Shown here: piece by piece, positions 6,912 through 41,649 of the stretch
Numbering within the stretch: the stretch's first letter is position 1
Layout of the letters: the number at the start of each line of letters is the position of its first letter
Origin: Nitrospirota bacterium
GTDB taxonomy: Bacteria > Nitrospirota > UBA9217
Reading direction: 5' to 3'
NCBI GenBank assembly: GCA_035490495.1
Contig: DATHDE010000085.1
Location: 1,885-65,884, forward strand
Length of the DNA stretch: 64,000 nt
The notes under the pieces: model-generated
The model's input: only the letters and a program-made list of their open reading frames with translations
Told to the model about the DNA's origin: nothing
The model's database searches: none
Made by a program: the position numbers and the translations under genes

Positions 6912-6991
6912 ATGGTAACAGCACAACATACCCAGCACCGTGGAGCATCCTGCGCTTTTGTTTGTTCTCAGCACCCCCGCTCTCTATGCTG

Positions 6992-7537: not shown

Positions 7538-7545
7538 AGAACAGA

Positions 7546-7622: not shown

Positions 7623-7681
7623 GTGTAAATTGCTTCTGCTGTTCGTAACTGCGCGGAGCCGCCGTGATGCGGCGAACAACG

Positions 7682-8206: not shown

Positions 8207-8288
8207 GAATGATACCCCCTTTGCAAATGAGTCAAGGAACACAGACACGCCCCTCCGCCTGAACTGAAGGGCATCTCTCTATAAGAAC

Positions 8289-8378
8289 TGGCGGAGAGGC
8301 CGGGATTCGAACCCGGGGTGGAGTTACCCCCACAACTGCTTAGCAGGCAGCTGCCTTCAGCCGCTCGGCCACCTCTCC
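8289..8378 (-). tRNA. tRNA-Ser (anticodon GCU), CCA encoded
   Basis: 90 nt. Anticodon arm GCUGC-CUGCUAA-GCAGU, long variable arm, T-loop UUCGAAU. Confidence 0.92.
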
Positions 8379-8477
8379 GTTTGACTGCGTCACACGATAT
8401 GTCTTGTTTTCAGCACAGGCCGCGGACCCGACGTACTGCTTGGTGATCCGAACCCTGTAGTTTATGCTTTTCTTTTA

Positions 8478-8563
<86 letters not shown>

Positions 8564-10755: not shown

Positions 10756-13241
10756 GCCGAACCGGCGCCCTGGCCCATCGGGGACGTGTCGTTTTTGTCT
10801 CCGCTTGGCTCCTTTTCATCTTCCCGCTCTACGACCTTGGCGAAACTCACCACGCTGTCACCCTCGTCGATATCAAACAGACGCACACCCTGCGTGTTTC
10901 TGCCCTGGACCGAGATGTCACGAACGCGAATGCGAAGAATTTTTCCGTTCCCCGTAATCAGAATAATCTCATCTTCCTCGGAGACCTGGGCCATGCCCAC
11001 GACGCTGCCGTTCTTTTCGGTTGTCTTGATCGTGATGATGCCTTTGCCGCCGCGGCCCTGACTGCGGTAATCCTCGAGCGTGCTTCTCTTTCCGTATCCC
11101 TTTTCCGTTACCGTCAGGATGGTGGAATCGTCCCTCACTATTTCCATGCCCTTGACCTCGTTGCCTTCGTCAAGCCTGATGCCGATCACGCCCTTGCCTG
11201 TGCGTCCGATTTCGCGGACATCAGTTTCATTGAAGCGGATCGAAAGCCCTTCCTTGGTGCCGAGGAAAACATCGCGCGCGCCATCAGTCACTTCTGCGGC
11301 GATCAATTCATCGCCCTCCTCGAGGGTGATCGCGATGATGCCGGAGGGCCGCGGATGGCTGTAGGACTCGAGTTCCGTTTTCTTGATGACCCCCTGCTTT
11401 GTCGCCATCAGGGTGAAATGACCGGGCGTGAATTCGCGGACCGGAAGCGCCGCGGTGACTCGTTCGTCGTTCCTGATCTGGATCAGGTTGATAATGGCTT
11501 TCCCCTTGGCCTGCCTGCTTGCCTCGGGGATCTGATGCACCTTGAGCCAGTACACCCGGCCCCTGTTCGTGAAGAAAAGAATGTAGCTGTGCGCACTCGC
11601 GGTGAAGAGACGCTCTACAAAATCCTCTTCCTTGGTCTCCATGCCGATCTTGCCCTTGCCCCCGCGTTTCTGTGCGCGGTAGATGGCAAGGGGGTTGCGC
11701 TTGATATAACCGGCATGCGAGATCGTAATGACCATATCCTCATCCTTGATCAAGTCTTCGATCTCGATCTCCGAGGTCTGGGCCACAATCTCCGTCCTGC
11801 GCGCATCCCCGTACTCGGTCTTGATCGCCAGGAGCTCATCCCGGATGATCTTCATCACGAGCGCGTCCGAAGCGAGTATCTCGTTCAAGCGTGCGATCTC
11901 TTTCAGCACCTCTTCGTATTCCGCAACGATCTTGTCACGCTCGAGGCCCGTCAGACGCTGCAGGCGCATATCGAGTATGGCCTGGGCCTGGATCTCGGAA
12001 AGCTTGAACTCCCGAACCAATCCCTGCTTCGCCTCTTCAGGGTTCGGCGCCGCTTTGATGAGGGCAATGACGGCGTCGATGTTTTCAAGGGCAATCTTGA
12101 GGCCGAGCAGAATATGGGCGCGTTCTTCGGCCCGTTTGAGGTCGTACTTCGTCCTGCGCACCACCACTTCTCTGCGATGCTGGATGAAGTTCGAGAGAAG
12201 CTTTCGCAGGTTCAGGATACGCGGCTGGTTGTTCACGAGCGCCAGCATGATCACGCCAAACGTCGACTGCATCGCAGTATGCTTGTACAGCTGGTTCATG
12301 ATCACGTTGGCGATTTCGCCCTTTTTGAGCTCAACCACAATCCGCATGCCCTCGCGGTCGGACTCATCTCGGACCTCGGTGATCCCCGTTATTTTCTTGT
12401 CTTGCACGAGCTCGGCAACGCGCTCAAGCAGCCGCGCCTTGTTGACCTGGTAGGGAAGCTCAGTTACCACAATGCTCTCCCGGTCACCCTTGCCTTCCTC
12501 TATCACGGCGCGGGCGCGCATCTGGACGATGCCGCGTCCAGTCGTGTATGCCTGCTTGATGCCTTCATACCCGTGAATGAATCCGGCCGTAGGAAAATCG
12601 GGGCCTTTAACAGCGGTCATGAGCTCCGGGACGGTCACCTCCGGATTATCGATCATCATGACGAGACCGTCCACGACTTCTGACAGATTATGAGGCGGGA
12701 TGTTCGTTGCCATGCCGACCGCGATGCCGGCGGAACCATTTATCAGGAGGTTCGGCACTTTCGTGGGAAGAACGGACGGCTCGACCGTCGTCTCATCAAA
12801 ATTCGGCACGAAGTCGACGGTTTCCTTGTCGATATCAACGAGCATCTCCTCTGCCAGCTTCGTTAACCGCGCTTCCGTATAGCGGTAGGCCGCGGCGGAG
12901 TCGCCGTCCACACTCCCGAAGTTACCCTGGCCGTCTACCAGAATATAGCGCATATTGAAATCCTGCGCCATCCTGACCATGGTATCGTACACGGCACTAT
13001 CGCCGTGGGGATGGTACTTTTTTAAAACTTCGCCAACCACGCCGGCGCTCTTAGAATATTTTTTATTGTGCAGGAGGCCTTCGCGGAACATTGCATACAG
13101 AATCCTGCGATGCACCGGCTTCAGTCCGTCGCGCACGTCCGGCAGGGCCCGTCCCACAATTACGCTCATGGAGTAATCGAGGTAGGCTGTTTTCATCTCC
13201 TGCTCGATATTAACGACTGATTTCAGGTCCTGCGATTCCAT
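10752..13241 (-). CDS. gyrA: DNA gyrase subunit A
   Basis: 829 aa. AAMRYTE-like catalytic Tyr region ([11 protein letters not shown]), QRDR-type [11 protein letters not shown]-terminal beta-pinwheel repeats. Confidence 0.97.
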
Positions 13242-13338
13242 AGGTTATTCTCTGTTCAAACGGCACGCGGCAAACGAGGATCTTGGTTTGTTATCTCTGC
13301 GCACTTCCTTGGACCGGCAGAGAATCTCGGAGTGCTGC

Positions 13339-15786
<2,448 letters not shown>

Positions 15787-15896
15787 TCATTCCACGAACA
15801 ATATGGTTCCCGACACAATTCATCCCATCAATGGTGCGCCGACATTACCAATAGTCCTGTGTGGACAATTCATGGCAATCGGCTGAATCACCACCA

Positions 15897-17012
15897 TCAT
15901 ACCCGCATCGGCATAACAACACACTTGTAAAACTCATCGCCTTCTTCAGTGATGAGGCAGGGGCTGAGCGGATCGCTGAGTTCAAGGTTGATATTTGCAT
16001 GATCCATCGCGGAAAGCACATCCATAAGATAGCGGGAGTTAAAACCGATAGCCAGTTCCTCGCCGTGGTACTCCACCATAACCTCTTCGTTCGCTTCCCC
16101 GACCTCCGGGTTGTTCGTTGAGAGTACGATACGGTTTTTATCGAGCTGCAGCTTGACTGCATTGGTTTTTTCCCGGGATAAAATCGAGACCCGTTTGACT
16201 GCGTGGGTCATTATGTCTTTGGCGACGGATATTTTTTTTGTGTTCTTTGCTGGTATGACCTGCTGATAGTTGGGGTAATTCCCGTCGATGAGCTTCGAAA
16301 CCATAATAAGGCTGTCTCTTTTGAACAGCGCATGGTTTTTGCTGAATCCGATGCGCAAATCAGCATTCGGCGTATCTTCCTCCAGTAACCGTCTGAGCTC
16401 CATCATTGCTTTCTTGGGAATAATGACGCTTTCATCCTTGTGTTTTGCATCGACGAAACGGTCGATCAGGGACAACCGGTGTCCGTCGGTACCCACCATT
16501 CGTATCGCCAAGCCTCCTTTGGCCTGGGTCATGTGTACAAAAAGACCGTTGAGTACGTATCGGGCGTCGTTTTCGCCGACGGAGTACAACGTCTTTTTAA
16601 TCATATCGCGAAGGGTTGCTCCGTCGATGGCGATCATTCCCTCTTCGGCAACATCCGGGAGCGCTGGAAATTCGTCTTTCGGCAAACCGACCAGCTTGAA
16701 TTGTGATCGGCCTGAACTGATTTTCACCCAATTGTTATCCTCGACTTTCAAAGAAAGATCTTCCGAGGGAAGCTCCCGGACGATTTCGTACACTTTCTTT
16801 GCAGATACGGCGATGGATCCGGGCTTTTCAACTTCTGCCGCATACCGACCGCGAAGGCCGATTTCAAGATCCGTGGCGATGATTTCGAGGCCGGTGTTTT
16901 CAGCATTCAGGAGCATGTTCGCAAGAATCGGCATGGTGTTTTTTTTCTCTACAACACCCTGAATCCTTTGCAGCCCCTTCAGGAATTCCTCTTTCTTTAT
17001 TTTAAGTTTCAT
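15897..17012 (-). CDS. dnaN: DNA polymerase III beta sliding clamp
   Basis: 371 aa with a three-domain clamp pattern (MKLKIKKEEFLKGLQRIQGVVEKK...). Positioned between dnaA and gyrB. Confidence 0.95.
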   Translation of the reverse strand: MKLKIKKEEFLKGLQRIQGVVEKKNTMPILANMLLNAENTGLEIIATDLEIGLRGRYAAEVEKPGSIAVSAKKVYEIVRELPSEDLSLKVEDNNWVKISSGRSQFKLVGLPKDEFPALPDVAEEGMIAIDGATLRDMIKKTLYSVGENDARYVLNGLFVHMTQAKGGLAIRMVGTDGHRLSLIDRFVDAKHKDESVIIPKKAMMELRRLLEEDTPNADLRIGFSKNHALFKRDSLIMVSKLIDGNYPNYQQVIPAKNTKKISVAKDIMTHAVKRVSILSREKTNAVKLQLDKNRIVLSTNNPEVGEANEEVMVEYHGEELAIGFNSRYLMDVLSAMDHANINLELSDPLSPCLITEEGDEFYKCVVMPMRV

Positions 17013-17099
17013 CTAGAGAAGCCTCCTGTCACAACCCGGAATAGTATCAGAAATATATGTAAATAGCAATAAAAATATCCGACGATTTACCCTCTATTT

Positions 17100-18428
17100 T
17101 CAATGCTTTATCTGCCTAATCAACATCTCAATTCTGGACCGCAAATCAGGCTCTTTTTCCTTCTTTTCCTCAATTACTTTACAGGCGTGAATGACCGTGC
17201 TATGGTCTTTTCCGCCGAAAAAGTTCCCTATTTCCGGGAGCGACGAGTTCGCAAGCGTACGGCACAGGTACATTGCTACTTGCCTCGGGAGCACGACCGC
17301 TTTTGTCCGGCGCTTGGACTTCAAATCGGACAATTTAACGCCGAACGACTCGGCAACGACTTTCTGTACGAGTTCGTTCGTAATGACCTTATCTCTGCTG
17401 TCGATGAGATATTTGAGTTCGTTTTTTGCGAGCTCCTGCGTGATCTCCGTGTTGGTCAATGATGAAACTGCGCCAAGCTTGACAAGGCCTCCTTCAAGCT
17501 CGCGAATATTGCTTTTCATCATCGAGGCGAGAAACGCCGCTACATCATCGGGCAGGCGAATTCCCCAGAAATCCGCCTTCTTTTTCAGGATCGCAATGCG
17601 TGTTTCTAAATCCGGCGTTTGAATGTCAGTTATCAAACCTGATTCAAAACGTGACCGCAGCCTCTCCTCGATATCAGGAATTTCCTTTGGCTGGCGGTCG
17701 CTTGTCAGCACAATCTGCTTTTGGGCTTCGTAGAGCGTGTTGAACGTGTGGAAAAACTCCTCTTGTGTTCGCTCCTTGCCCGCGATGAACTGAATGTCGT
17801 CGATGATTAACACATCCATATTACGGTATTTCTGACGAAATTCTTCCATCCGCTGATGACTCATGCGATTGATCAATTCATTTGTAAACTGCTCGGACGA
17901 AAGATACGCGACTTTCGTCCGTGGCGACTTGGACTGGATATGATGGCCGATCGCGTTGACGAGGTGCGTTTTTCCGAGACCGACGCCGCTGTATATGAAT
18001 AGCGGATTGTATGTTCTGCCTGGAGCGTCTGCGACTGCTTTGGCTGCCGCGTGAGCAAATTGGTTGCTTGGGCCGACTACAAAGGTGCTGAACGTATATT
18101 TTTTCTCGAAAAGACCTGATTTGTCCTCGCGGCCATCTTTTTTTTCTTCTTTTGAGTGACTGACGTTTCTCTTAACAATTTGAGGCGGGACAAAAAACTC
18201 AATTGCAATGTCATCTCGCTTTGTTACTTCCCTGATAACGTCAGTAAGGGTTCCCCAATGGTGTTCTTTTATCCAGTCACGATGAAACTTGCTGGGCACT
18301 TCAATGTGCAGTTTCGTGCCTTCTATGGATAACAATTTGGACTGACTGAACCAGGTATCATAACCCTGCTTAGACATTCGATTTTCAATTAGAAGCAGAA
18401 TCTCTTCCCAGATCTTTGCTTGATCCAT
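17100..18428 (-). CDS. dnaA: chromosomal replication initiator DnaA
   Basis: Start moved to MDQAKIWEEIL (ATG at 18428). AAA+ Walker A GVGLGKTH, and C-terminal DNA-binding signature (GGKDHSTVIHACKVI). Confidence 0.95.
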   Translation of the reverse strand: MDQAKIWEEILLLIENRMSKQGYDTWFSQSKLLSIEGTKLHIEVPSKFHRDWIKEHHWGTLTDVIREVTKRDDIAIEFFVPPQIVKRNVSHSKEEKKDGREDKSGLFEKKYTFSTFVVGPSNQFAHAAAKAVADAPGRTYNPLFIYSGVGLGKTHLVNAIGHHIQSKSPRTKVAYLSSEQFTNELINRMSHQRMEEFRQKYRNMDVLIIDDIQFIAGKERTQEEFFHTFNTLYEAQKQIVLTSDRQPKEIPDIEERLRSRFESGLITDIQTPDLETRIAILKKKADFWGIRLPDDVAAFLASMMKSNIRELEGGLVKLGAVSSLTNTEITQELAKNELKYLIDSRDKVITNELVQKVVAESFGVKLSDLKSKRRTKAVVLPRQVAMYLCRTLANSSLPEIGNFFGGKDHSTVIHACKVIEEKKEKEPDLRSRIEMLIRQIKH

Positions 18429-18477
18429 AAAATACCCCGAAAAAACCTCAATAAAACAAAGATGGTTACAAACATGC

Positions 18478-18497
18478 TTATCCACAGGTGTGGACAA
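18478..18497. promoter_or_regulatory. two convergent DnaA boxes
   Basis: TTATCCACA (18478-18486, perfect consensus) and TGTGGACAA (18489-18497, i.e. TTGTCCACA on the other strand, one mismatch). They lie 50-70 nt upstream of the dnaA ATG. Confidence 0.75.
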
Positions 18498-18921
18498 CAA
18501 AATATTTTGATTAATTTCTGATAGTTAGACGGCTTTTTGAGGATGGTTTGGCTTAAAAAAATTACCCCGTTTTCAGGCTTTTTTTGATATTCTCTGATCG
18601 ATAGGGGAATTCGCAATTCCAAGAATAATTATATCTGATTTTGAACTCTCTTTTCAATTGCGAGGCAAAACTATACCAGAACCCCCAGTTTCTGGCAAGG
18701 TATTTTTCTCACCGGGTAACATTAAACCAAACCGTATGAAATTTCATGATAAATATGTAGATAGACACCGAAATGATATGCTGGTATCGTTATTTCAAAA
18801 ATGAATTATGATTCATTATAAATTTTCTATGATGCAAGCGCTAAGTTAATTCACAAGAACAAGCAGCTGATAGCTCATCTCACATTTAATAATTAATGGA
18901 AATAATTGGTTAAAAAATTGC

Positions 18922-18950
18922 TTGACATCGCAACAGCAGCCCAGTACAAT
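18922..18950 (+). promoter_or_regulatory. sigma70-type promoter for the tusA/dsrE-like operon
   Basis: TTGACA (18922-18927), a 17-nt spacer, then TACAAT (18945-18950). GGAGG RBS at 19009-19013 precedes the ATG at 19023. Confidence 0.6.
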
Positions 18951-19022
18951 AAAACAATTGTTTCATCGGTGGCTTTTGGGCCGGTTTCTGGATTTTAATA
19001 AACTATGTGGAGGTAATCTGGT

Positions 19023-19265
19023 ATGTCATCTGATACCAAATTTGATCAACTTCTGGATGCCAAGGGTTTAAACTGTCCGCTTCCCATTTTAAAAACAAAA
19101 AAAGCCGTAGAATCTCTGAACAAGGGCCAGGTGCTCAAGGTTGAGACAACGGATCCCGGCTCGAAGAACGACATGGCTTCATGGGCGAAACGCACAGGCA
19201 ATGAAATCGTAAAATCGGAAGAAGGCTCTGGCACGTATACCTTCTTCATCAAGAAAACGGCATAG
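19023..19265 (+). CDS. TusA-family sulfurtransferase
   Basis: 80 aa. The CPxP active-site motif (GLNCPLPIL) near the N-terminus is typical of TusA/SirA. Confidence 0.85.
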   Translation: MSSDTKFDQLLDAKGLNCPLPILKTKKAVESLNKGQVLKVETTDPGSKNDMASWAKRTGNEIVKSEEGSGTYTFFIKKTA

Positions 19266-19270
19266 GGGGC

Positions 19271-32531: not shown

Positions 32532-32939
32532 TTATGATGCTGCGGAACTAAGTACCGCCGATGGAGATCCGCCGGAAGAGATTTTATTATCCGTGGACAT
32601 CTCGCAGGTGCCGTCAAAGAGTACGCCTTCCTCAATTATCAGCTTGGGTGTTCTGATCGTCCCCTCGATTTTGGCGGGGGCAAGGACATGCACCTTCTGA
32701 AGAGCATTCACGTTGCCAACGATCCTGCCGCTGCAAATGAGCGTTCCGATCGAGATCTCACCCTGCAGCAAGGCTCCGTCGCCTGCGATGAGCGTGTCCT
32801 TTGAAATAACCTCCCCTTCTAACTTACCGTCAACGCGAATAGTACCTTCAAAGCTCAGCACTCCCTTGAACTCGGTTCCTTTTCCGAGAAACGCGGTAAT
32901 TTCGGACTGCTCGGGTGTGCCGGATCCTTTTTTCAGCAT
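32532..32939 (-). CDS. bactofilin (polymer-forming cytoskeletal protein)
   Basis: Start moved to MLKKGSG (ATG 32939, GGAGGA RBS). Repetitive beta-helix pattern (FKGVLSFEGTIRVDGKLEGEVIS...GEISIGTLICSGRIVGNV...). Confidence 0.85.
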   Translation of the reverse strand: MLKKGSGTPEQSEITAFLGKGTEFKGVLSFEGTIRVDGKLEGEVISKDTLIAGDGALLQGEISIGTLICSGRIVGNVNALQKVHVLAPAKIEGTIRTPKLIIEEGVLFDGTCEMSTDNKISSGGSPSAVLSSAAS

Positions 32940-33023
32940 GCTGTTTCCTCCTGTGATAAGAACTGCGCAGCGCAATGTTCTCGAGTAGGCCCCCTGAGAG
33001 GGAAGCAAAGGTATTGAGCATTC

Positions 33024-33869
33024 TCAGGAAATCCTTTCCAACAGTCTTTCCAATTCTTCAGGCGAGTAATAATCGATCACAATCCTGCCGCCGGACGACC
33101 TGGCGGTGATACTGACCTTCGTGCCGAGAAGTTTTTTCAGCCTTTCCTCGATCGCCTTGAGCTCGTGGCTCAGGCGCGGTTTCCGGTCATGCGGGGGGTT
33201 CTTGAGCCGCGAAGCAAGTGCTTCAGCCTCGCGGACGGACAGATCTTTCTGTGCAATAAGTGCTGCAGCCTGCACCTGATCGCGAATGCGTTCAAGGGAG
33301 AGGATCGCCTTGGCATGTCCCATGCTGAGCGCGCCGTTGGCAAGAAGGGTTTTAACCTCCTTGGGAAGGCTGAGAATGCGAAGAAAGTTTGTGATCGTTG
33401 ATCGCTCTTTGCCAACCCGTTTGGCGAGATCCTCTTGCGTGAGCTTGAATTCATCCTGGAGCCGCTTATAAGCCTCAGCTGCTTCGAGTGCATTCAAATC
33501 CTCGCGCTGAATATTCTCGATCAGCGCCATTTCAAGCAGCTCGCGCCTGCTCACATCCTTGACGAGAGCGGGTATGGTCTTGAGTCCCGCGAGACGAGCA
33601 GCACGACATCGTCGCTCGCCGGCGATAAGCCCGTATCCACCGCCTGCCTTGTGAACGATGACGGGCTGGATCACACCCTGTTCTTTGATAGAAGCGGCGA
33701 GCTCTTTCAGCCTGTCATCGTTGAATACCTTTCTTGGTTGGTATTCATTCGGTAGGATACGATCGAGTTCGATCTCCAGGATGCCGAGGGCCTTCTTTTC
33801 ACGGTCGTCGAGCGTTGAAAGATCGGGGATAAGAGCACCGAGACCCTTACCGAGCGCCTGCTTTTGCAT
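33024..33869 (-). CDS. parB: chromosome partitioning protein ParB
   Basis: Start moved to MQKQALGKGLGALIP (ATG 33869, AAGGAGG RBS); overlaps the parA end by 23 nt. ParB box GERRCRAA and an HTH region. Confidence 0.93.
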   Translation of the reverse strand: MQKQALGKGLGALIPDLSTLDDREKKALGILEIELDRILPNEYQPRKVFNDDRLKELAASIKEQGVIQPVIVHKAGGGYGLIAGERRCRAARLAGLKTIPALVKDVSRRELLEMALIENIQREDLNALEAAEAYKRLQDEFKLTQEDLAKRVGKERSTITNFLRILSLPKEVKTLLANGALSMGHAKAILSLERIRDQVQAAALIAQKDLSVREAEALASRLKNPPHDRKPRLSHELKAIEERLKKLLGTKVSITARSSGGRIVIDYYSPEELERLLERIS

Positions 33870-34620
33870 TAATGACCTCCTTGGCAAGGGCAAGGTAGCT
33901 CTGGGCGCCGCGGGAACGAATGTCATACAAAAGAACTGGTTTTCCGTGGCTAGGTGCTTCTGACAGCGAGACATTCCGGTGAATGACCGTTGAATATACC
34001 TTGGAACCAAAATACTTGCGAACCTCCTGCGCCACCTGGTCGGCAAGGTTGTTTCTGCTGTCATACATGGTCAGCAGAACACCTTCAATCGAAAGCTGGG
34101 GGTTCAAATCCTGCTTGATGAGCTTGATAGTATTGGTGAGAGCGGACAACCCCTCAAGGGCGTAGTACTCACACTGCACTGGAATAAGCACTCCGTCGGC
34201 CGCGGTCAAGGCGTTTACGGTCAACAGGCCGAGTGACGGCGGACAATCGATGAAAATGTAGTCGTAGGAACTCCTGCAATCCGCAATGGCTTTTTTCAGT
34301 ATCCGCTCCCGCGAAATGGTCTGGCTGAACTCAACGTCGACACCGACGAGATTTATATTGGCTGGAATGACATCGAGCCACGAGAAGTGCGTTGATATTT
34401 TTATATCATTGATTTTTTTTTCTGATGTAAAGAGGTCGTAGGTACTGCCTTTGACAATATTTGGATCAATACCCATACCGCTCGTGGAGTTGCCCTGGGG
34501 ATCGCAGTCGATGAGCAGGACTTTTTTTTCAGCAGCCGCGAGCGAGGCAGCGATATTTACTGCGGTCGTGGTCTTTCCAACGCCGCCCTTCTGGTTCGCG
34601 ATGGCGATGATCCTGCCCAT
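33847..34620 (-). CDS. parA: chromosome partitioning ATPase ParA/Soj
   Basis: 257 aa. Deviant Walker A NQKGGVGKTTT. Confidence 0.95.
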   Translation of the reverse strand: MGRIIAIANQKGGVGKTTTAVNIAASLAAAEKKVLLIDCDPQGNSTSGMGIDPNIVKGSTYDLFTSEKKINDIKISTHFSWLDVIPANINLVGVDVEFSQTISRERILKKAIADCRSSYDYIFIDCPPSLGLLTVNALTAADGVLIPVQCEYYALEGLSALTNTIKLIKQDLNPQLSIEGVLLTMYDSRNNLADQVAQEVRKYFGSKVYSTVIHRNVSLSEAPSHGKPVLLYDIRSRGAQSYLALAKEVINAKAGAR

Positions 34621-34954
34621 GAAGCTCCTTGTTTTTTCGGTGGGATAAACAGGATTAATCTAACATAGGCAGACTATAAAAGGAAGAAAAAATTGAGGAA
34701 CAACGGCTATCCCGCGACGGGTTAGAGAGTGCCTCCACACGATAAGGAAAGAGCGAAGCGTCGCGAGTAACCGATTCAGGGAAGTCGCGTTGTGATGGGG
34801 AGCCTCCGGCGCATGCCGGAGGTGACTCCACGTTGTGAATGAATAATATTATGCAGGCATGTTTGAAGACACCGCTGTTCAGGAAAGGCTGCAGCGGTAT
34901 CTTCTCGTTGCTTTCAAGTGCTATTTTAATAAATGTATTTTCTTAATGAGAATA

Positions 34955-35188
34955 TTATAGAAGCAGCCCACTGATTACGAGAATATATCCGATACTCCGG
35001 ACACCGACCAGCACGGTTTTTAAGCTAGACGACCATCCCATAAGAATTGAAAAATGAGAAACAGCATACATGAAAAAACCAAGGCCTACGAAGAGAAATG
35101 CTTTTACACCTGAAGACAGGTATCGTCTGACACCCAAATAAACAATCAACAAACTAAAGAGAAGATTCACTACGGTAATAATATCCAT
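34955..35188 (-). CDS. small hydrophobic protein (about 3 predicted TM helices), unknown function
   Basis: ATG at 35188 lies 6 nt after the AGGAGG RBS, which overlaps the stop of the upstream gene. 77 aa, almost entirely hydrophobic. AT-rich. Confidence 0.6.
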   Translation of the reverse strand: MDIITVVNLLFSLLIVYLGVRRYLSSGVKAFLFVGLGFFMYAVSHFSILMGWSSSLKTVLVGVRSIGYILVISGLLL

Positions 35189-35198
35189 GAACACCCTC

Positions 35199-36074
35199 CT
35201 ATTGAAACAGCAGATTTACTTTTTGACCTTCCTGCAGACCAAACCGTTTTATGTCAGTATGAGTTAATGTAGCATCTTGTTTATTGTCGGTGTGCCATGT
35301 AATATTCAAAGCACCGCATTCTTGGTCATCATTATAGAGAAGGAGCGATGTGCGCTGCGAGAACTCAGGAAAAGCCGTCTTCGATAATCTTACAAAATTC
35401 TGTTTTGCACCAAGACCAGAATCTTTCTTTACTACTGCACCGGAAATCTGCTGGAAGGAGTTGTCAATAAATAAAAGGCAGAGCGCGCAGGCCATTATTT
35501 GTGAGTTTTCATTCGCAAAGACGCGGCTGAACCAGTTGTTCAGACTGCTTGTGTCCTTGGGAATGCCATATTCACTTAGTCGTGTAAGTGATATTCTAAG
35601 ACCCTGGCGCAGCCCATCAAGTCTTTTATTGTAAATAGATTCATCAAATGAAAAGGCAGAATATTTCCTTTGAATTTCTTGGGTTACAATTGCTGCTGCA
35701 CTTCGGCCGCCCTCGATATTTGGTGCGTACAGACAAGAAAGGATAATAAAAAGCTTTATCAATCTGATAGGAGGGGGGGGGCTTGATTTATAAAGAAAGG
35801 AAAATGCCGAAGGAAACAACTTTTCAACTGTTATTGCTTGAGTGTTTTTGGGATCGATTTTTCCCTGTGTAATATTAATATTTTTTATTGAATCTCTTAA
35901 GAGAGAACCAATTGTTTGTTCAGCTGACAAGGTCCGTGATTTTAATGAAATAGGTAGCCTTCCGTAAATGCCGGCTTCAATAAGTTCATTTTGCGATGTT
36001 GTCAGGTAGCACGAACCATCCTCAATATTTTTTTTTTCAATTTCTGCCAATAGAAGATTGAGTCCGTTTGTCAT
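35199..36074 (-). CDS. hypothetical protein, no recognisable domain
   Basis: Track ORF starts at TTG 36083; the first ATG is 36074 (MTNGLNLLLAEIEKK). AT-rich codon usage unlike its neighbours. Contains a C9 tract encoding PPPP. Confidence 0.6.
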   Translation of the reverse strand: MTNGLNLLLAEIEKKNIEDGSCYLTTSQNELIEAGIYGRLPISLKSRTLSAEQTIGSLLRDSIKNINITQGKIDPKNTQAITVEKLFPSAFSFLYKSSPPPPIRLIKLFIILSCLYAPNIEGGRSAAAIVTQEIQRKYSAFSFDESIYNKRLDGLRQGLRISLTRLSEYGIPKDTSSLNNWFSRVFANENSQIMACALCLLFIDNSFQQISGAVVKKDSGLGAKQNFVRLSKTAFPEFSQRTSLLLYNDDQECGALNITWHTDNKQDATLTHTDIKRFGLQEGQKVNLLFQ

Positions 36075-36082
36075 AATTAGCA

Positions 36083-36091
36083 ATTATAGCA
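36083..36091 (-). promoter_or_regulatory. extended -10 promoter (TGCTATAAT), implying a leaderless or near-leaderless mRNA
   Basis: Minus strand reads TGCTATAAT-tgctaatt-ATG. Only 8 nt separate the -10 hexamer from the ATG at 36074, and there is no RBS. Confidence 0.45.
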
Positions 36092-36311
36092 CAATCTGCA
36101 AGAAAGCGAATACTTTTGATAACATTTTATCTGAATACACGTTTCAGTAAATTTTTTCAAAGAACGACATAATATTATGTCCATACCATTTGTTTATACT
36201 GATAAATTAAATGGATATCGGCATTAGATTACACGATGTTTTACTAAGATGATATCGCCCAAGGCTGCCCATAAATGGACTTTTATAATGGTCATAATTT
36301 AATTGAAAAGG

Positions 36312-36327
36312 ATGTTCCACGTGGAAC
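36312..36327. repeat. copy 1 of ATGTTCCACGTGGAAC (contains the perfect 14-bp palindrome GTTCCACGTGGAAC)
   Basis: Read directly from sequence. In this copy the palindrome extends to 16 bp (TGTTCCACGTGGAACA). Lies 115 nt downstream of the Clp1-like gene. Confidence 0.9.
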
Positions 36328-36441
36328 AAAAAGAGGAGCTAGGGGTCATAAACAGGCAGCCAGAAAATAAAAAAGACTACTCGACCTTCTTGAATTTATT
36401 TTACGGTTTTTCCCCAGGAAAGACATTCACCGGCTCAAGGA

Positions 36442-37515
36442 TTACACTTGACCGAGCTCCCCTCCAGCAGGACTGACGCGCATTGAACCGAGTGAAATGT
36501 TGCGGACGCCAGAAATGTCACGCAATGGTGTGATCAGGCGGATGGAAAGTTCCCGCAAGTCAAGCGTTCGTAGAATGCCGAGACCAAGGCAAAGGTTTCT
36601 GTCATCATTCAAGCCGATAAGCAGATGATCAAGCTCCGAACGTTTGACTACCATGACCTCGCGTACCGCGTATTGTTCTTTCGCTGTAAACAACTCTGTT
36701 TCATTATAATCACCTTCCGTAATAAGATATAGACGGTCTGACGAGATTTCTGCGTGGATGACAATGGCATGGAATATTTTCGATAATCTATTGATGTCCC
36801 GGAAGCCAAGCCGCTCACCTGTTCCGAGACCCGTGCCATGCACGCCGACGTCATGGAGAGAGATTTCCTGAAAATCCGCTCCACGAAAATAATCTTTAAA
36901 ACGCTGCTCACGGTTTGCTCTGCGTGCTTCATTTGTTGATTTCCTTGCTTCAGGGGCACAGGGCAGCCTGCGTATCAATAGACCGGAGCGATGAGAATGC
37001 GGTGTGAGAAGATGCTCAACCTCGGTTCCCTTCTGCAGAGCGGCAAGGTAGTGAGGCGTTATCAAGTCGATCTCGTGGAACTTCAGCTCGCGGGCGGCGC
37101 CACCGCCGATCAATCCGCAGGTATTTATCAGAATGAGATCAGGTTCCAGCGTATGAGCAAAGAGCACGAGCTTTTGCAACCCGACAATCATCTCAAGAAG
37201 TCTGCCAACAGGAGAACTGTTGCCTATGAAGCGCATGATCATGGGATTTCGCCTGCGCAGCAGGTCCAGGGCCTCCGAATATTGTGTTAATGAGATCACT
37301 CCCGGCGGACCAATGAAAGGCTGACCCGGATCAGCATCAATCCAGACGAGTTTTTTACGCGAGCGGCAGAACAACCCGGTTAAGTAGAGACCGAAGGTTG
37401 TCTTGCCTGAACCAGAGGCTCCGATTACCATGACCGTGCCATGGTGGACTTGAACCTCATCAGCGAACTCCCGCCATTCAAGTGGTATTTGTAGAGTTGA
37501 ATTGACCATGTTCAT
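36442..37515 (-). CDS. Clp1/Grc3/Nol9-like P-loop protein (putative polynucleotide 5'-kinase)
   Basis: 357 aa. Walker A GASGSGKTT (res 32-40), then WIDADPGQ and INTCGLIGGGAAREL in the order typical of the Clp1 P-loop domain. Confidence 0.6.
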   Translation of the reverse strand: MNMVNSTLQIPLEWREFADEVQVHHGTVMVIGASGSGKTTFGLYLTGLFCRSRKKLVWIDADPGQPFIGPPGVISLTQYSEALDLLRRRNPMIMRFIGNSSPVGRLLEMIVGLQKLVLFAHTLEPDLILINTCGLIGGGAARELKFHEIDLITPHYLAALQKGTEVEHLLTPHSHRSGLLIRRLPCAPEARKSTNEARRANREQRFKDYFRGADFQEISLHDVGVHGTGLGTGERLGFRDINRLSKIFHAIVIHAEISSDRLYLITEGDYNETELFTAKEQYAVREVMVVKRSELDHLLIGLNDDRNLCLGLGILRTLDLRELSIRLITPLRDISGVRNISLGSMRVSPAGGELGQV

Positions 37516-37606
37516 ATTCTCGGTATAACTAAACCACCGTCACGTAACCAGCGAAGCGAGGCACGCGACAATTGGTCCGTGCATAATTTCCATTGAGCGT
37601 ATCTAA

Positions 37607-37622
37607 ATGTTCCACGTGGAAC
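37607..37622. repeat. copy 2 of ATGTTCCACGTGGAAC
   Basis: Identical 16-mer. Lies 2 nt after the rsmG stop codon and 92 nt upstream of the Clp1-like ATG. Confidence 0.9.
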
Positions 37623-37624
37623 TG

Positions 37625-38266
37625 TTAAGAAGCGATTGATAAAACCCAAATTGCGCGTTTATGATCTGAAAAAGGCAGTTTTAATTCTAAGCGTTGTTTG
37701 ATTTGGATATTGAGTTCTGCCAGATCCAGATCAGTTAATCTTTCATTGATCCCCCTGCTCAGAACAAATACACCTTGTTTCCTTAAGAACGGCCGCCCGG
37801 CTTCAACTACTGACCTCATGTTGGCAAAGGCGCGTGCTGTAACGACATGAAAAGCACTGCTGAGCTGGGTGTACAGTGATTCGACCCGTGCTTCCATTAC
37901 CGGTACATCAATCTGCAGTGTTCTTATGATATGCCTCAAAAAAGAGGCTTTTTTCGCCACTGACTCGATGAGAGCGACAGACACATCAGGACGTGCGATC
38001 TTAATCGGCAACCCGGGAAAACCAGCCCCTGATCCAAGATCGATGATCTTCAAGCCCGGCAAGGGATCAAGGCCCTTTATATAAGAAAGAGAATCAAGCA
38101 TGTTTTTTACAATGCTGTCCTGTTCATTGCGAATTGCGGTCAAGTTGATTTTTCGGTTCCATTTATCGAGCTCTGCCTGATAGAGCAAGCATGCATCGAC
38201 CATTGCCGGCGTCAGCTCAATCGCAAGGTTCCGGGCGCCTGTGATTAGAAGATCCCGCGATGTCAT
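37625..38266 (-). CDS. rsmG: 16S rRNA (guanine527-N7)-methyltransferase
   Basis: 213 aa. SAM motif DLGSGAGFPGLP. Position downstream of mnmG. Confidence 0.93.
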   Translation of the reverse strand: MTSRDLLITGARNLAIELTPAMVDACLLYQAELDKWNRKINLTAIRNEQDSIVKNMLDSLSYIKGLDPLPGLKIIDLGSGAGFPGLPIKIARPDVSVALIESVAKKASFLRHIIRTLQIDVPVMEARVESLYTQLSSAFHVVTARAFANMRSVVEAGRPFLRKQGVFVLSRGINERLTDLDLAELNIQIKQRLELKLPFSDHKRAIWVLSIAS

Positions 38267-38276
38267 CGTGATTCCT

Positions 38277-40154
38277 TTATCCCCTGCCTCGCTTTTTTTT
38301 CTCTAATGCAACCATGAGCAGGGAGATGGCAGCAGGTGTAACACCGGATATGCGCGATGCCTGGCCCAGGGATCGCGGGCGTACGAGCTTCAATTTCTGT
38401 TTTACCTCTGAGCCGAGCCCTGTTATGTCATCATAATCAAGCCCCTCAGGTATCAGCCGCTTTTCAAGGGACGCAAATCTGGCGACCTGCTGGAGCTGCC
38501 GGTCGATATACCCGTTGTACTTGACCATGATCTCTACCTGCTCCGCCACTTCCTGTGCGATTGCATCCCCGGATGGCGATAATAAAGCAATGTCGGCATA
38601 CGTAAGTTCAGGCCGCTTTAACAACTGCTCGAGAGACGCCTCCCCGCTCAGCAGTGTTGATCCCTTTTCAGCAAGAAGCGCGTTGATGTCCGGCGAAGGT
38701 TTCATCCAGACTTTTGCTAGGCGGTTGGTTTCTCGTTCAATGACTTGCAGCTTCGTTTCCGTTTGAGTATACAGTTCTTCTGACACGAGGCCGACGGATC
38801 TTCCCTTTGCCCTGAGCCTGATATCCGCATTGTCCTCACGGAGAAGGAGGCGGTACTCCGCGCGAGAAGTAAACATGCGGTAGGGTTCGTTTGTGCCCAG
38901 GGTTACGAGATCGTCGATCAAGACGCCGATGTACGCTTCAGCACGCGACAGAATGAGCGGCTCGCGTCCCTGAATCTTGAGCGCCGCATTGATGCCAGCC
39001 ATCAAGCCTTGGGCTGCAGCTTCCTCGTACCCCGAGGTCCCGTTTATCTGGCCGGCGAAATAGAGACCCGCAATGTGCTTGGTCTCGAGCGTATGGAGTA
39101 TCTGCGTCGGCGGAGCGTAATCATATTCAATGGCATACGCGGGACGCATAATCTCGACTTCTTCAAGTCCAGAGATTGTCCGGTACATGTCCTGCTGGAC
39201 ATCAAACGGCAGGCTTGTTGAGACACCATTGGCATAGTACTCCTCCGTATCCAGTCCTTCTGGTTCAAGAAAAACCTGATGCCGATCACGATCCGAGAAT
39301 CTTTTTACCTTGTCCTCGATCGATGGACAATACCGCGGTCCTATCCCTTTAATCACGCCTGCATATAAAGGGGATCTGTCAAGATTGCGAAGAATGATTT
39401 CATGCGTCCGGCTATTTGTATACGTGAGATAGCAGGGCATTTGCGGCAGTTCGTGGGGTATTCTGGAAAAAGAAAAGAACGGCGCCGGGTCATCACCCGG
39501 CTGTGGTTTCATTTTCCTGAAGTCGATCGTTCTTCCGTTCAATCGTGCCGGGGTGCCGGTTTTGAGCCTGCCGATTTCGAACCCCAGCTCGCGCAAACAG
39601 TCCGAGAGTCCGATTGAAGGAAACTCGCCGGCGCGGCCCGAGGGATAGTGAACAAGGCCGATATGGATCAGGCCCTTGAGGAAGGTGCCGGTTGTAACAA
39701 TTATCGCGGCAGCCGAGTACTGAACGCCGATGCTTGTTTCAACGCCGACGATGCTTTTTCCTTCGACCACGATCTTTTCGACGAGCCCCTGCTTAATGTC
39801 AAGCCGCGGCTGTCGTTCGACCGACTCCTTCATTGCGAGACGGTACCGCTGCTTGTCCGCCTGTGCGCGCGTGCCACGGACTGCCGGTCCTTTGCTCCGG
39901 TTCAAAATGCGGAACTGGATGCCGGTGCGGTCGATGATCTTCGCCATTTCGCCGCCGAGCGCGTCGATCTCCTTGACCAGATGACCCTTGGCAAGCCCGC
40001 CGATGGCCGGATTGCACGACATGAGCGCGATGCTGTCGAGATTCATCGTGAGCATGAGCGTATTACAGCCCATGCGCGCTGCGGCAAGCGCCGCTTCACA
40101 TCCGGCATGGCCGGCGCCGATCACAATGATGTCGTATTTCCTCTGCGTATGCAT
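38277..40154 (-). CDS. mnmG: tRNA uridine-5-carboxymethylaminomethyl modification enzyme MnmG (GidA)
   Basis: 625 aa. FAD motif IVIGAGHAGCEAA and conserved GidA core. Confidence 0.96.
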   Translation of the reverse strand: MHTQRKYDIIVIGAGHAGCEAALAAARMGCNTLMLTMNLDSIALMSCNPAIGGLAKGHLVKEIDALGGEMAKIIDRTGIQFRILNRSKGPAVRGTRAQADKQRYRLAMKESVERQPRLDIKQGLVEKIVVEGKSIVGVETSIGVQYSAAAIIVTTGTFLKGLIHIGLVHYPSGRAGEFPSIGLSDCLRELGFEIGRLKTGTPARLNGRTIDFRKMKPQPGDDPAPFFSFSRIPHELPQMPCYLTYTNSRTHEIILRNLDRSPLYAGVIKGIGPRYCPSIEDKVKRFSDRDRHQVFLEPEGLDTEEYYANGVSTSLPFDVQQDMYRTISGLEEVEIMRPAYAIEYDYAPPTQILHTLETKHIAGLYFAGQINGTSGYEEAAAQGLMAGINAALKIQGREPLILSRAEAYIGVLIDDLVTLGTNEPYRMFTSRAEYRLLLREDNADIRLRAKGRSVGLVSEELYTQTETKLQVIERETNRLAKVWMKPSPDINALLAEKGSTLLSGEASLEQLLKRPELTYADIALLSPSGDAIAQEVAEQVEIMVKYNGYIDRQLQQVARFASLEKRLIPEGLDYDDITGLGSEVKQKLKLVRPRSLGQASRISGVTPAAISLLMVALEKKKRGRG

Positions 40155-40278: not shown

Positions 40279-41649
40279 CTATTTGCCGATACAGAAGCTG
40301 TTGAATATGCGTTCAAGGATGTCCTCGGTATGCGTTGCGCCGACTATAAGCCCCAGGCTGTCCAGGGCGGCACGCAGGTCCAGGGCTATGAATTCAGGCG
40401 ATTGGAGCCCGGCAGCGCTTTCGTGAGCGCGCTCAAGACTGCTGCGAGCCTGTTCCAGCTCCTTTTTATGGCGTGCATTGATTGCCCAGGAATGGTCACG
40501 CGCGGGAATGCTGCCTTGCAGAACACAGCCTGCCAAAAAATCCTTCAGCTCCGTAAGGCCGGCACCGGTCCGGCATGAAACGGCCACCTGGCGGCTTGGG
40601 GTGTCGAGATGTTCTATCCCGCGCGGCAGGTCCGATTTGTTTATTACTGCAATCGTCTGTTTGTGCTTGACGCTCTCCAGAACCTGGCTATCTTCGGGAT
40701 GGAGGGGCTGCGAGCCGTCGAGCACAAAAAGGATGATGTCCGCAGCCTTGACGGCAGCAAGGCTCCTGCGCACCCCCTCCTGCTCAACGAGATCATGCGA
40801 ATGTCTGATGCCTGCCGTATCGAGTATCTTGAACGGTACCCCGTTGATATTGAGATATTCTTCGAGCACGTCGCGCGTTGTTCCGGGGATGTCCGTGACA
40901 ATGGCGCGGTCCTGCTTGAGCAGTGCGTTCAAGAGAGATGATTTTCCGACATTCGGCCGGCCGACAATGGCTGTTGCACAGCCGTTGCGGAGAATCCGGC
41001 CGAAGTCATGCGTCGTAATGAGCTCGGCGACGCGTTTGATCAGATGGGAAATCTCCCCTGCCAGCGGTTTGCCGCCCGGGGTCACGATATCCTCCTCGGG
41101 AAAATCAATACCCGCCTCAACCGAGGCGAGCAGTGAGAGCAGGTCCTCACGAAGTGCGCCAATTTCACGCGACACTGCGCCCAGCAGCTGCTCATTTGCC
41201 GCACGGTGGGCAAGCTCCGTCTTGGCGCTGATGACATCCATGACCGCTTCCGCCTGGGCCAGATCGATCCTGCCATTTAAAAAGGCGCGCTTGGTGAATT
41301 CTCCGGGTTCAGCCATGCGTGCCCCCTGTTTCAGCAGGAGCGCAAGCGTGCGCTGAAGCGGCAGCATGCCGCCGTGGCAGTTGATTTCGACAACATCTTC
41401 CCTTGTGTACGTTGCAGGCGCGCGCATTACCGTTACCAGAACTTCATCAACCATATCCCCGGTTTCGGGGTCAACGATGCTGCCGTATCGGATGGTATGC
41501 GAAGCCTGGGCGCTGATATCGCCTCGTACTCGCGCGCGAAACAATGCAGATGCGAGTCTCACCGCATCTTTGCCGCAGATGCGGATGATCCCGATGCCGC
41601 CCTCTCCCGGCGGTGTTGAAACGGCACATATGGTATCGTCCAGCAGCAT
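40279..41649 (-). CDS. mnmE: tRNA modification GTPase MnmE (TrmE)
   Basis: 456 aa. G-domain GRPNVGKSS and DTAG, with the C-terminal CIGK motif. Confidence 0.96.
   Translation of the reverse strand: MLLDDTICAVSTPPGEGGIGIIRICGKDAVRLASALFRARVRGDISAQASHTIRYGSIVDPETGDMVDEVLVTVMRAPATYTREDVVEINCHGGMLPLQRTLALLLKQGARMAEPGEFTKRAFLNGRIDLAQAEAVMDVISAKTELAHRAANEQLLGAVSREIGALREDLLSLLASVEAGIDFPEEDIVTPGGKPLAGEISHLIKRVAELITTHDFGRILRNGCATAIVGRPNVGKSSLLNALLKQDRAIVTDIPGTTRDVLEEYLNINGVPFKILDTAGIRHSHDLVEQEGVRRSLAAVKAADIILFVLDGSQPLHPEDSQVLESVKHKQTIAVINKSDLPRGIEHLDTPSRQVAVSCRTGAGLTELKDFLAGCVLQGSIPARDHSWAINARHKKELEQARSSLERAHESAAGLQSPEFIALDLRAALDSLGLIVGATHTEDILERIFNSFCIGK

Follow-up and report, generated by a model that had tools for sequence, protein, structure and literature searches.

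A probable native centromere region between rsmG and parA of a Nitrospirota bacterium, with a Clp1-like gene and a lineage-specific two-gene segment

What occupies the space between rsmG and parA in this Nitrospirota bacterium? A sequence-only reading had noted three non-canonical ORFs and about 0.9 kb of non-coding DNA at this junction, which gene calls and Pfam searches confirm, and had taken the whole of these roughly 3 kb for acquired cargo lodged in a housekeeping operon. Here we report an analysis of the interval within the whole 64 kb stretch of DNA (the window) and in related loci. We consider it, with a probability of about 0.78, to be a native centromere region that consists of a parS pair, a core clp1 gene and an acquired two-gene module. 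Overall, this would make for a centromere region of the ordinary kind, its one curiosity being a modest one.

The genes concerned are all encoded on the minus strand, in the order mnmE (40279-41649), mnmG (38277-40154), rsmG (37625-38266), clp1-like gene, 291-aa ORF, 77-aa ORF, parA (33847-34620), parB (33024-33869), bactofilin (32532-33008) and purL. The gene rsmG, coding for the 16S rRNA m7G527 methyltransferase (PF02527 GidB, E=5e-41), is the last of the mnmE-mnmG-rsmG run and is syntenic in all relatives compared. ParA is a Soj-type Walker ATPase (PF13614, E=4e-70) with 76-85% identity to its relatives, and ParB (281 aa) combines a ParB_N CTPase motif, GERRCRA, with an HTH and a dimerisation domain (PF02195, PF17762, PF23552). 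The bactofilin gene (PF04519, E=1e-25) lies directly downstream of parB, and holds the same position in relatives.

Upstream of parA, a promoter-like element, TTTTTTCTTCCTTTTAT...CCTATGxTAxATTAA (34652-34692, minus strand), is the sole conserved block in an otherwise unalignable spacer (alignment A3, 7 loci). Since parAB keep this conserved promoter-like element of their own, no operon has been broken, and the notion of an insert inside a housekeeping operon fails on this point.

Palindromic sites in the rsmG-parA interval

As the earlier reading had placed it, an exact 16-mer is shared by positions 36312-36327 and 37607-37622, on either side of the Clp1-like gene. We tested for parS as a 16-bp palindrome of consensus TGTTNCACGTGAAACA or its variant TGTTCCACGTGGAACA. 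The first site, parS-1 (37608-37623), reads TGTTCCACGTGGAACT on the plus strand, matches the palindromic parS in 15 of 16 positions and starts one base past the rsmG stop codon. The second, parS-2 (36313-36328), is a perfect 16-bp palindrome, TGTTCCACGTGGAACA, with a 16/16 match, 113 bp downstream of the clp1 stop. The published parS of P. aeruginosa is identical to the window 16-mer, and the M. xanthus consensus matches it at 15/16 positions (PMC7022226 Table 1). Papers containing the 14-mer core mostly concern ParABS centromeres.

The window holds exactly two parS matches, to which a tolerance of up to 3 mismatches adds none, with 0.17-0.19 expected by chance; half-sites are not above chance (10 observed vs 6.4 expected). 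Both sites lie 1.7-3 kb upstream of parA and at most 1.3 kb from each other. About 18 kb separate them from the putative oriC, with dnaA, the DnaA boxes and a switch in GC skew; dnaA, dnaN, gyrB, gyrA, the DnaA boxes and the switch are found at about 11-19 kb of the window. Across 54 distinct related loci, all sites (108/108) fall within the rsmG-parA interval and none in the 528,362 bp outside it. In these loci the columns of the 14-bp core are 98-100% invariant vs 30-50% for the flanking columns, and the spacer is otherwise unalignable. An equivalent of parS-1 stands between rsmG and clp1 in 40 related loci, with a 100% invariant 14-bp core, and one of parS-2 downstream of clp1 in 52, mostly 1-10 bp past the stop, with a core invariance of 98-100%. 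An unbiased metagenome scan found parA, parB, rsmG or mnmG within a few kb of 45 of 120 loci carrying the 16-mer.

The window ParB has the protein features to match, with ParB_N, HTH_ParB and ParB_C domains, and its GERRCRA fits the CTP-binding motif GxxRxxA. Its best PDB match is 7BNK, a 'ParB family protein' (E=6e-62), which we take to be the ParB of M. xanthus. Judged by sequence, the two 16-bp palindromes are chromosomal parS centromere sites, and ParB is predicted to bind at both. By analogy with characterised ParABS systems, ParB-CTP dimers would load at the two TGTTCCACGTGGAACA-type palindromes and slide onto the flanking DNA, forming a partition complex that would be moved by ParA.

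The earlier reading had also claimed that the 16-mer recurs about 250 times in the parent assembly and is a dispersed repeat. It could then be a REP-like palindrome or the hairpin of a terminator, and not a centromere at all. A hairpin with a 6-bp stem is indeed possible, parS-2 also scores as a weak terminator-like hairpin with a T-run after it, and each copy in the window follows closely on a stop codon. However, only the two copies occur in 64 kb and none in 528 kb of relatives' flanks, and at the claimed density the Poisson chance of zero extra copies in the window would be about 0.01. Nothing is shared beyond 16-17 nucleotides, half-sites stay at chance level and the 16-mer is identical to an experimentally defined parS. 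Moreover, terminators and REPs drift through compensatory change; the present core stays the same, base for base, between species with only about 50% identity in RsmG. We thus regard the dispersed repeat as very improbable. Some 250 genome-wide copies, if true, would be incompatible with a two-site centromere.

The Clp1-like gene

The gene between the two sites (36442-37515, minus strand) codes for a P-loop protein of the Clp1/Nol9/Grc3 family, which matches the full CLP1_P model (PF16575, positions 1-188/188; E=3e-29, 102.6 bits against a cut-off of 26.6). Translation probably begins with the ATG at 37509, so that the protein would have 355 aa, the length seen in relatives. In the PDB it matches NOL9, Grc3 and human Clp1 best, lid motif included. 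Invariant in alignment A1 are the Walker A motif GxxGSGKT, the DxDPGQ motif as WIDADPGQP, the clasp INTCG and the lid RxxxREQRFKxYF, and the kinase motifs align with the corresponding ones of NOL9 and human Clp1. No N-terminal family domain was found (Clp1_eN/eC, Nol9_eC and Clp1_aC were considered), and for the last ~140 residues the sole match, a local one to the C-terminus of NOL9, scores 1.7 bits.

From these motifs the protein is predicted to be a polynucleotide 5'-hydroxyl kinase, most likely acting on RNA. The Clp1 of Thermus scotoductus (Ts-Clp1) is an RNA 5' kinase by experiment and the only bacterial member with kinase activity shown (PMC6777427). A role in RNA maturation or RNA repair would fit the position of the gene right after mnmE-mnmG-rsmG.

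Is this gene cargo? More than 100 homologs with 68-83% identity were found, all of them in Nitrospirota. In 53 of 53 other distinct related loci the gene sits between rsmG and parA, the protein being 58-83% identical, vs about 50% for RsmG, and its identity tracks that of ParA, ParB and MnmG across the loci; the synteny is kept in L001-L059 and L066. Its composition equals that of the backbone (GC 0.507, GC3 0.52), as the earlier reading had held. That reading had further pointed to the same cluster in a related assembly; the insert is indeed the same there, but at 99.6-99.98% identity that assembly represents the same population and adds no independent conservation. The sequence comparisons mark the Clp1-like gene as a clade-wide core gene, vertically inherited and strongly constrained, and not as cargo.

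The proposal that the whole ~3 kb, clp1 included, is recent cargo in a tight operon, with the 16-mers as its boundary repeats, can draw on the rarity of bacterial Clp1-family genes, which occur patchily in 0.9% of species and for which horizontal acquisition has been proposed (PMC6777427), and on the 16-mers that bracket the gene. On these two grounds the gene may have been acquired long ago, at the base of the clade. A recent one has to face the constant location and the backbone GC and GC3 of clp1, and 16-mers that are the universal parS sequence; in relatives these also occur after hcp or directly upstream of parA, and hence are not boundaries of one element. Nor were mobility genes found: as the earlier reading had noted, the rsmG-parA interval contains no integrase, transposase or tRNA target and no convincing direct repeats, and we detected no tandem repeats, Rfam match or phage signatures in it. 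Pfam, PHROG and NCBIfam gave no integrase, transposase or recombinase match over 34.6-37.6 kb, and the closest tRNA is at 8.5 kb. Defence signatures were likewise absent from the interval, where PADLOC returned P-loop noise only (E 0.009 or weaker) and no defence protein. Recent acquisition of the whole 3 kb is therefore largely refuted, and we hold it to be highly improbable.

A different proposal is that the protein is a part or regulator of the partition system, as a SIMIBI-fold NTPase acting on ParB-parS, or that its gene is kept in place for control by ParB. The gene is never found outside the stretch from rsmG to parA, most loci have parS on both sides of it, its product is as conserved as ParA and ParB, and it gives weak ParA/CbiA-type P-loop matches (PF01656, precomputed). 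ParB of P. aeruginosa represses promoters adjoining parS (PMC5521831). However, all four polynucleotide-kinase motifs are intact and the best structural relatives are RNA kinases. Bracketing is also not obligatory, since both parS sites lie downstream of clp1 in several relatives (e.g. L003, L017 and L035), and gene order alone is weak evidence, as mnmE-mnmG-rsmG offers an equally good RNA-related context. We consider a partition role improbable. With the protein read as an RNA kinase, ParB on the adjacent parS may still modulate clp1 expression.

The AT-rich two-gene segment

The part of the interval that does deviate is a lineage-specific segment at 34720-36312, with an AT-rich core at about 34840-36312 (GC about 0.39). 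The sequence-only reading had called 34.9-36.4 kb AT-rich. GC does drop here, to 0.31-0.42 at about 34.8-36.45 kb (or, drawn more tightly, about 34.84-36.4 kb), while the window as a whole averages 0.525. In the GC and codon-usage check that it had proposed, the deviation (GC 0.39, GC3 0.35-0.40) is confined to 34.72-36.31 kb, the two small genes having GC3 values of 0.35 and 0.40 vs 0.45-0.65 in neighbouring genes. Low GC alone is no proof of foreign origin, since a broad, native-looking low-GC block is also present at 17-28 kb of the window.

Alignment to every relative ends at about 36440 and resumes at about 34700-34720. The slot between clp1/parS and the parA promoter holds hcp, an ISL3 transposase, an ORF or a spacer of 150-500 bp in relatives; the window itself lacks hcp throughout its 64 kb. 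The two-gene module is absent from the junction in all 53 other distinct related loci, and the segment as a whole from all other species-level relatives. Relatives with the same genes at this junction, which would have spoken against cargo, exist for the Clp1-like gene and not for the 291-aa and 77-aa genes. The cargo proposal remains plausible for 34.72-36.31 kb, deviant and absent from relatives, and falls for the Clp1-like gene, with its 53 loci and backbone composition.

The larger gene of the module, on the minus strand at 35199-36074 (ORF 35199-36083, 294 aa), codes for a 291-aa protein with a C-terminal double-psi beta-barrel and with no Pfam, NCBIfam, PADLOC or PHROG match. A word-index search returned no relatives, and an exhaustive phmmer search 28 full-length ones at 22-30% identity. 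The AlphaFold model, built with an alignment, reaches a pLDDT of 91 and a pTM of 0.85, and by Foldseek its C-terminal ~85 residues resemble the double-psi barrel of the VCP/p97 N-domain (probability 1.0, target TM-score 0.74-0.78); the N-terminal alpha/beta and central helical domains had no structural match. The smaller gene, also on the minus strand (34955-35188; ORF 34955-35194, 79 aa), starts 11 nt past the stop of the first behind a GGAGGG ribosome-binding site, and its 77-aa product has three hydrophobic segments. DUF5985 (PF19447) is its top match, below threshold (E=0.033, 14.9 bits vs a cut-off of 27.3), and likewise the top match of the small ORFs that follow 291-aa homologs in L061, L062 and L065; in all, it ranks first for 4 of 4 paired small ORFs, the best score being 25.3 bits (E 1.9e-5), still below 27.3. 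This pairing recurs in other bacteria, at unrelated loci that have no parS close by. The 77-aa gene is followed by the inverted repeat I8 (34865-34904, minus strand; 13-bp stem, 92% complementary, 14-nt loop), likely the terminator of the module.

Taken together, the module would be a self-contained pair of a cytosolic 291-aa protein and a DUF5985-like 77-aa membrane protein, and only the 34.72-36.31 kb segment is species-specific; it was probably acquired. It would most likely have been gained by horizontal transfer or illegitimate recombination, and its slot, where relatives have hcp, an IS element or nothing, would be a permissive site free of promoters. No convincing direct repeats flank the AT-rich segment, only chance-level AT-rich 11-mers, and no integrase, target-site duplication or tRNA points to a route of acquisition. 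Other Nitrospirota, among them a Dissulfurispiraceae member, carry remote homologs of the pair, so that relocation within the phylum is as possible as distant transfer. These homologs could also suggest that the module is an old origin-proximal resident that other lineages have lost or moved; 3 of 4 contexts lie 4-8 kb from genes of the origin region (mnmE-yidC in L061, gyrA in L064, parB in L065). The absence from the site in 53 of 53 loci, the GC3 below that of the neighbours and a closest homolog of only 27-30% identity speak against such residence, which we judge unlikely.

Comparison with characterised systems

Like the ParABS systems of P. aeruginosa and M. xanthus, the present locus combines a canonical CTPase-type ParB with the 16-bp palindrome TGTTCCACGTGGAACA (15/16 to the M. 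xanthus consensus), near the origin and beside parAB. A bactofilin gene follows parB here, as it does in Myxococcus. Against 22 sites in M. xanthus and 9-10, with many half-sites, in P. aeruginosa, the search found just two here, 1.3 kb apart at most and inside the rsmG-parA interval, and the sites of this clade typically abut the stop codons of rsmG and the Clp1-like gene.

The module resembles small genomic islets, which arise by integrase-less gene replacement, in being a deviant, species-specific pair at a site whose content differs among relatives; it differs from genomic islets in having no integrase, tRNA target, direct repeats or recognisable cargo (defence, resistance or metabolism). 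In structural superposition, the last ~85 residues of the 291-aa protein fit the cradle-loop barrel of the VCP/p97/CDC48 N-domain with an rmsd of 2.2-2.8 Å. Unlike VCP/p97/CDC48, the protein carries no AAA+ ATPase module and is paired with a small membrane protein, and the identity is 9-14%.

It is a distant prospect that a whole Nitrospirota clade has made a Clp1/Nol9-type P-loop NTPase part of its centromere, with the gene retained between the only two parS sites of the chromosome because ParB loading controls it or because the product acts on the partition complex; if true, chromosome segregation in bacteria would for the first time be linked in function to the polynucleotide-kinase fold. 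Still less likely is that the ~250 claimed copies are real and that full parS sites are dispersed over the whole chromosome of this genome. Like Ts-Clp1 and the eukaryotic and archaeal Clp1, Nol9 and Grc3 proteins, the window protein has the CLP1_P P-loop domain with Walker A, Walker B/DxDxGQ, clasp and lid motifs, and it shares a short N-terminus with other bacterial Clp1 members. It differs from known Clp1, Nol9 and Grc3 proteins in a highly conserved C-terminal domain of ~140 residues with a faint resemblance to NOL9, and from their systems in that no Las1-like or ligase partner is encoded nearby. Unlike the sporadic Clp1 genes of other bacteria, the gene in the window is fixed clade-wide at one syntenic position.

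Gene order and composition of the rsmG-parA interval

The minus strand carries, in the order of transcription, mnmE (40279-41649), mnmG (38277-40154), rsmG (37625-38266), a gene for a CLP1_P-domain protein (Clp1-like, 36442-37515), an ORF of 291/294 amino acids (35199-36083, likely ATG at 36074), a hydrophobic ORF of 77/79 amino acids (34955-35194, likely ATG at 35188, preceded by the ribosome-binding site GGAGGG), parA (33847-34620), parB (33024-33869), a bactofilin gene directly after parB (32532-33008) and then purL. This gene order, and the separation of rsmG from parA by three ORFs, had been described in a sequence-only reading and are confirmed here. The mechanical ORF list gives parB as 346 aa with a 218 bp overlap with parA (33847-34064); relatives and the PDB alignment indicate a true length of 281 aa, with the start at 33869 and a 23-bp overlap. 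The position of bactofilin 3' of parB and ahead of purL is shared by the window and essentially all relatives, and this parAB-bactofilin linkage resembles the Myxococcus arrangement.

The GC content falls to 0.31-0.42 across approximately 34.8-36.45 kb, compared with a window mean of 0.525, which bears out the AT-rich stretch first seen in hand counts. GC3 departs from the surroundings in the two small genes, with values of 0.35 and 0.40 versus 0.45-0.65 in the neighbours. The Clp1-like gene has backbone composition (GC 0.507, GC3 0.52), in agreement with the earlier estimate. In this genome a low GC content does not by itself show that DNA is foreign, since a broad low-GC block at 17-28 kb (42-47% versus 52.5% for the window), covering the dnaA upstream region and DsrE-like, HD, NUDIX, yidC and FKBP genes, looks native.

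No tRNA or Rfam family turned up in scans of the interval, nor did Pfam and repeat searches reveal an integrase, a transposase or tandem repeats there, and no defence, phage or NCBIfam identity was obtained for any of its three proteins, PADLOC models included. A search for target-site duplications and inverted repeats bordering the AT-rich segment gave AT-rich 11-mers at chance level and one 31-nt match of 71% identity, and nothing else. The absence of mobility and defence signatures noted from the sequence thus stands. The same reading had taken the whole of about 3 kb as acquired cargo inside a housekeeping operon; this survives for approximately 1.6 kb only, and is abandoned for the Clp1-like gene, which is a clade-wide core gene, and for the flanking 16-mers, which are assigned to parS.

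The flanking 16-mers as chromosomal parS sites

The Clp1-like gene is bracketed by parS-1 at 37608-37623, which reads TGTTCCACGTGGAACT, and parS-2 at 36313-36328, which reads TGTTCCACGTGGAACA and is a perfect palindrome. A review of chromosomal ParB proteins gives the general parS consensus as TGTTNCACGTGAAACA and lists the sites of P. aeruginosa as TGTTCCACGtGGAACa and of M. xanthus as TGTTCCACGTGGAACG (PMC7022226). Fourteen papers contain the 14-mer core according to a full-text search, and those listed deal mostly with ParABS centromeres. The 64 kb window holds exactly 2 matches to the 16-mer, even at 3 mismatches, versus 0.19 expected. A remark on the earlier reading had put the 16-mer at about 250 copies in the parent assembly, as a genome-wide dispersed repeat; that figure was not reproduced here, as such a density would predict approximately 4.6 copies in the window, and the Poisson probability of zero copies beyond the 2 present is about 0.01, a value that applies to the 64 kb window only. 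GTTCCAC half-sites were not significantly enriched in the window (10 observed versus 6.4 expected).

The cognate protein is encoded nearby. The window ParB is canonical: it contains ParB_N, HTH_ParB and ParB_C domains as well as the GERRCRA motif for CTP binding, and among solved structures it best matches the ParB family protein 7BNK (6e-62), the M. xanthus ParB.

Relatives were gathered via the Clp1-like protein, yielding 54 distinct loci including the window, nearly all from MAGs labelled Nitrospirota, Nitrospirae or Nitrospiraceae. At ≤2 mismatches these contained 108 sites, every one of them (108/108) within the stretch bounded by the rsmG end and the parA start, and none in the 528,362 bp of flanking sequence. 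Untruncated loci have two or three sites each, without exception. Usually one site follows the rsmG stop and the other the Clp1-like stop, mostly within 1-10 bp; in some loci, such as L002, L003, L017 and L035, the sites are found downstream of hcp or immediately upstream of parA instead. Columns of the 14-bp core are 98-100% invariant, and the 20 columns on either side show 30-50% agreement, as in random sequence. An invariant core within random flanks is characteristic of a protein-binding site and does not resemble what a hairpin under drift or the border of a mobile element would show. A scan of metagenome contigs served as an unbiased control and found the exact 16-mer in at least 120 loci; among the matches listed, none of which came from the window species, 45 of 120 loci had homologs of parA, parB, rsmG or mnmG within a few kb.

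The replication-origin neighbourhood occupies 10752-19270. The genes gyrA, gyrB, dnaN and dnaA lie at 10.7-18.5 kb on the minus strand, DnaA-box-like 9-mers occur at 18324, 18478 and 18489, and the sign of the GC skew switches at about 18-19 kb. A candidate oriC is the spacer at 18.5-19.27 kb, on the upstream side of dnaA. This puts the two 16-mers some 18 kb away from the probable origin, a distance in keeping with parS. An origin inside the AT-rich stretch was rejected, because 34.6-37.6 kb contains no DnaA boxes and both dnaA and the skew switch are found near 18 kb. Elsewhere in the window, a minus-strand cluster at 6420-8563 holds four tRNA-Ser genes and one tRNA-Arg gene together with the small SRP RNA.

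Every sequence-level membership test run agreed with the parS assignment. We conclude on these grounds that the 16-mer is the chromosomal parS centromere, with ParB binding predicted, and that the interval represents a ParABS centromere region of the ordinary type. What appeared to be an insertion scar or dispersed repeat is the chromosome's centromere, which corrects the reading of the repeat and leaves thinking on how centromeres or islands work unchanged.

A variable slot upstream of parA and its two-gene module

DNA alignment to all relatives ends at the Clp1-like stop (about 36440) and restarts at about 34700-34720, 80-100 bp upstream of parA. In an alignment of the parA upstream spacer from seven loci, which cannot otherwise be aligned, the sole conserved block is a nearly invariant, promoter-like element of about 40 bp at approximately 34652-34692 (TTTTTTCTTCCTTTTAT...CCTATGGTAxATTAA), probably the parAB promoter or operator. 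With this element, parAB appear to have their own promoter, so that the slot upstream can vary without an operon being broken.

The slot next to parS and the Clp1-like gene is permissive. In about 21 of the 54 loci it holds an intact hcp (hybrid-cluster protein, Prismane), itself bracketed by parS in several of them. In single loci it contains hcp split into three ORFs, by pseudogenization or long-read frameshifts (L039, 7371-9236), an ISL3-family transposase (L017, 7119-8393) or an unannotated 143-aa ORF (L035, 7347-7778); other relatives have only a spacer of 150-500 bp. No hcp or hcp remnant was found anywhere in the window, whose slot is filled instead by the AT-rich segment that encodes the two small proteins. 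The insert had been reported from a related assembly; it does recur in contigs from three other samples, which are 99.6-99.98% identical to the window and hence represent the same population. The module was probably horizontally acquired or relocated.

Neither small protein has a Pfam, NCBIfam, PADLOC or PHROG identity. Word-indexed searches returned no relatives of the 291-aa protein and almost nothing for the family; an exhaustive phmmer search recovered 28 full-length relatives at 22-30% identity. AlphaFold on the single sequence gave no usable model (pLDDT 40), and with the alignment it reached pLDDT 91 and pTM 0.85. In the predicted fold, a small alpha/beta domain at the N-terminus is followed by a helical middle part and, at the C-terminus, by a double-psi beta-barrel of about 85 residues. 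The modelled barrel superposes on the VCP/p97 N-domain (Foldseek probability 1.0, TM-score (target) about 0.75), and Foldseek found no structural match for the rest of the model.

Of the four longer contexts, three have a membrane protein of 76-82 aa directly after the 291-aa homolog, and DUF5985 is the consistent top match, below threshold, for this small protein and for the window's 77-aa protein. The repeated pairing indicates a conserved two-gene module. Neighbours are otherwise varied signalling, motility and housekeeping genes; no further consistent partner was found in the contexts examined, and no parS sites occur at the homolog loci. Homologs of the pair were located at 8001-9109 of L061, 423-1553 of L062 and 1271-2400 of L065. 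On unrelated contigs, homologs lie within 4-8 kb of the origin-region genes mnmE-yidC (L061), gyrA (L064) and parB (L065), and they also adjoin chemotaxis, MshE, sigma-54 and flagellar genes. Upstream of the window's 291-aa gene, the AT-rich spacer contains a 16-bp perfect palindrome (36166-36181, GACATAATATTATGTC) overlapping promoter-like hexamers, which may be an operator.

These results define a small new two-gene family, consisting of a protein with a predicted double-psi-barrel C-terminus, for which the structural model is confident, and a DUF5985-like membrane protein. Our best guess, at low confidence, is that the two proteins form a pair tethered to the membrane, with a binding or regulatory role.

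The Clp1-like gene as a core gene of the clade

Pfam CLP1_P matched the Clp1-like protein over the whole model (102.6 bits), and the family profile aligns to human Clp1, C. elegans Clp1, NOL9 and Grc3 in the PDB, with the alignment running through the lid motif. Among 14 diverse homologs the Walker A motif (GxxGSGKT), the Walker B region (WIDADPGQP), the clasp (INTCG) and the lid (RxxxREQRFKxYF) are invariant. The sequence-level tests of domain and motifs placed the protein in the Clp1 family, with catalysis predicted. RNA 5' kinase activity has been demonstrated for the bacterial Ts-Clp1 (PMC6777427), and RNA 5'-hydroxyl kinase is accordingly the most likely predicted function here. The location behind mnmE-mnmG-rsmG, which are RNA-modification genes, is consistent with such a role; a functional link to partitioning we regard as very improbable.

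More than 100 homologs were found at 68-83% identity. The gene occupies the position between rsmG and parA in each locus with enough sequence, and its product is 58-83% identical to that of the window, comparable to ParA, ParB and MnmG; RsmG is much lower, at about 50%. Fixed synteny and high identity together mark the apparent intruder as a core gene of the clade that is inherited vertically and strongly constrained; it was possibly acquired long ago, at the clade's base. The lineage-specific wrinkle in this region is thus a Clp1-family kinase gene fixed between two parS sites across a whole Nitrospirota clade. Genes of this family are reported to be very rare in bacteria, in 0.9% of species, and patchy in distribution (PMC6777427). 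In contrast to that extremely rare and sporadic occurrence, an entire uncultured Nitrospirota clade keeps a Clp1-like gene under strong constraint and at a fixed position, so that the role of bacterial Clp1 can be addressed in a defined lineage.
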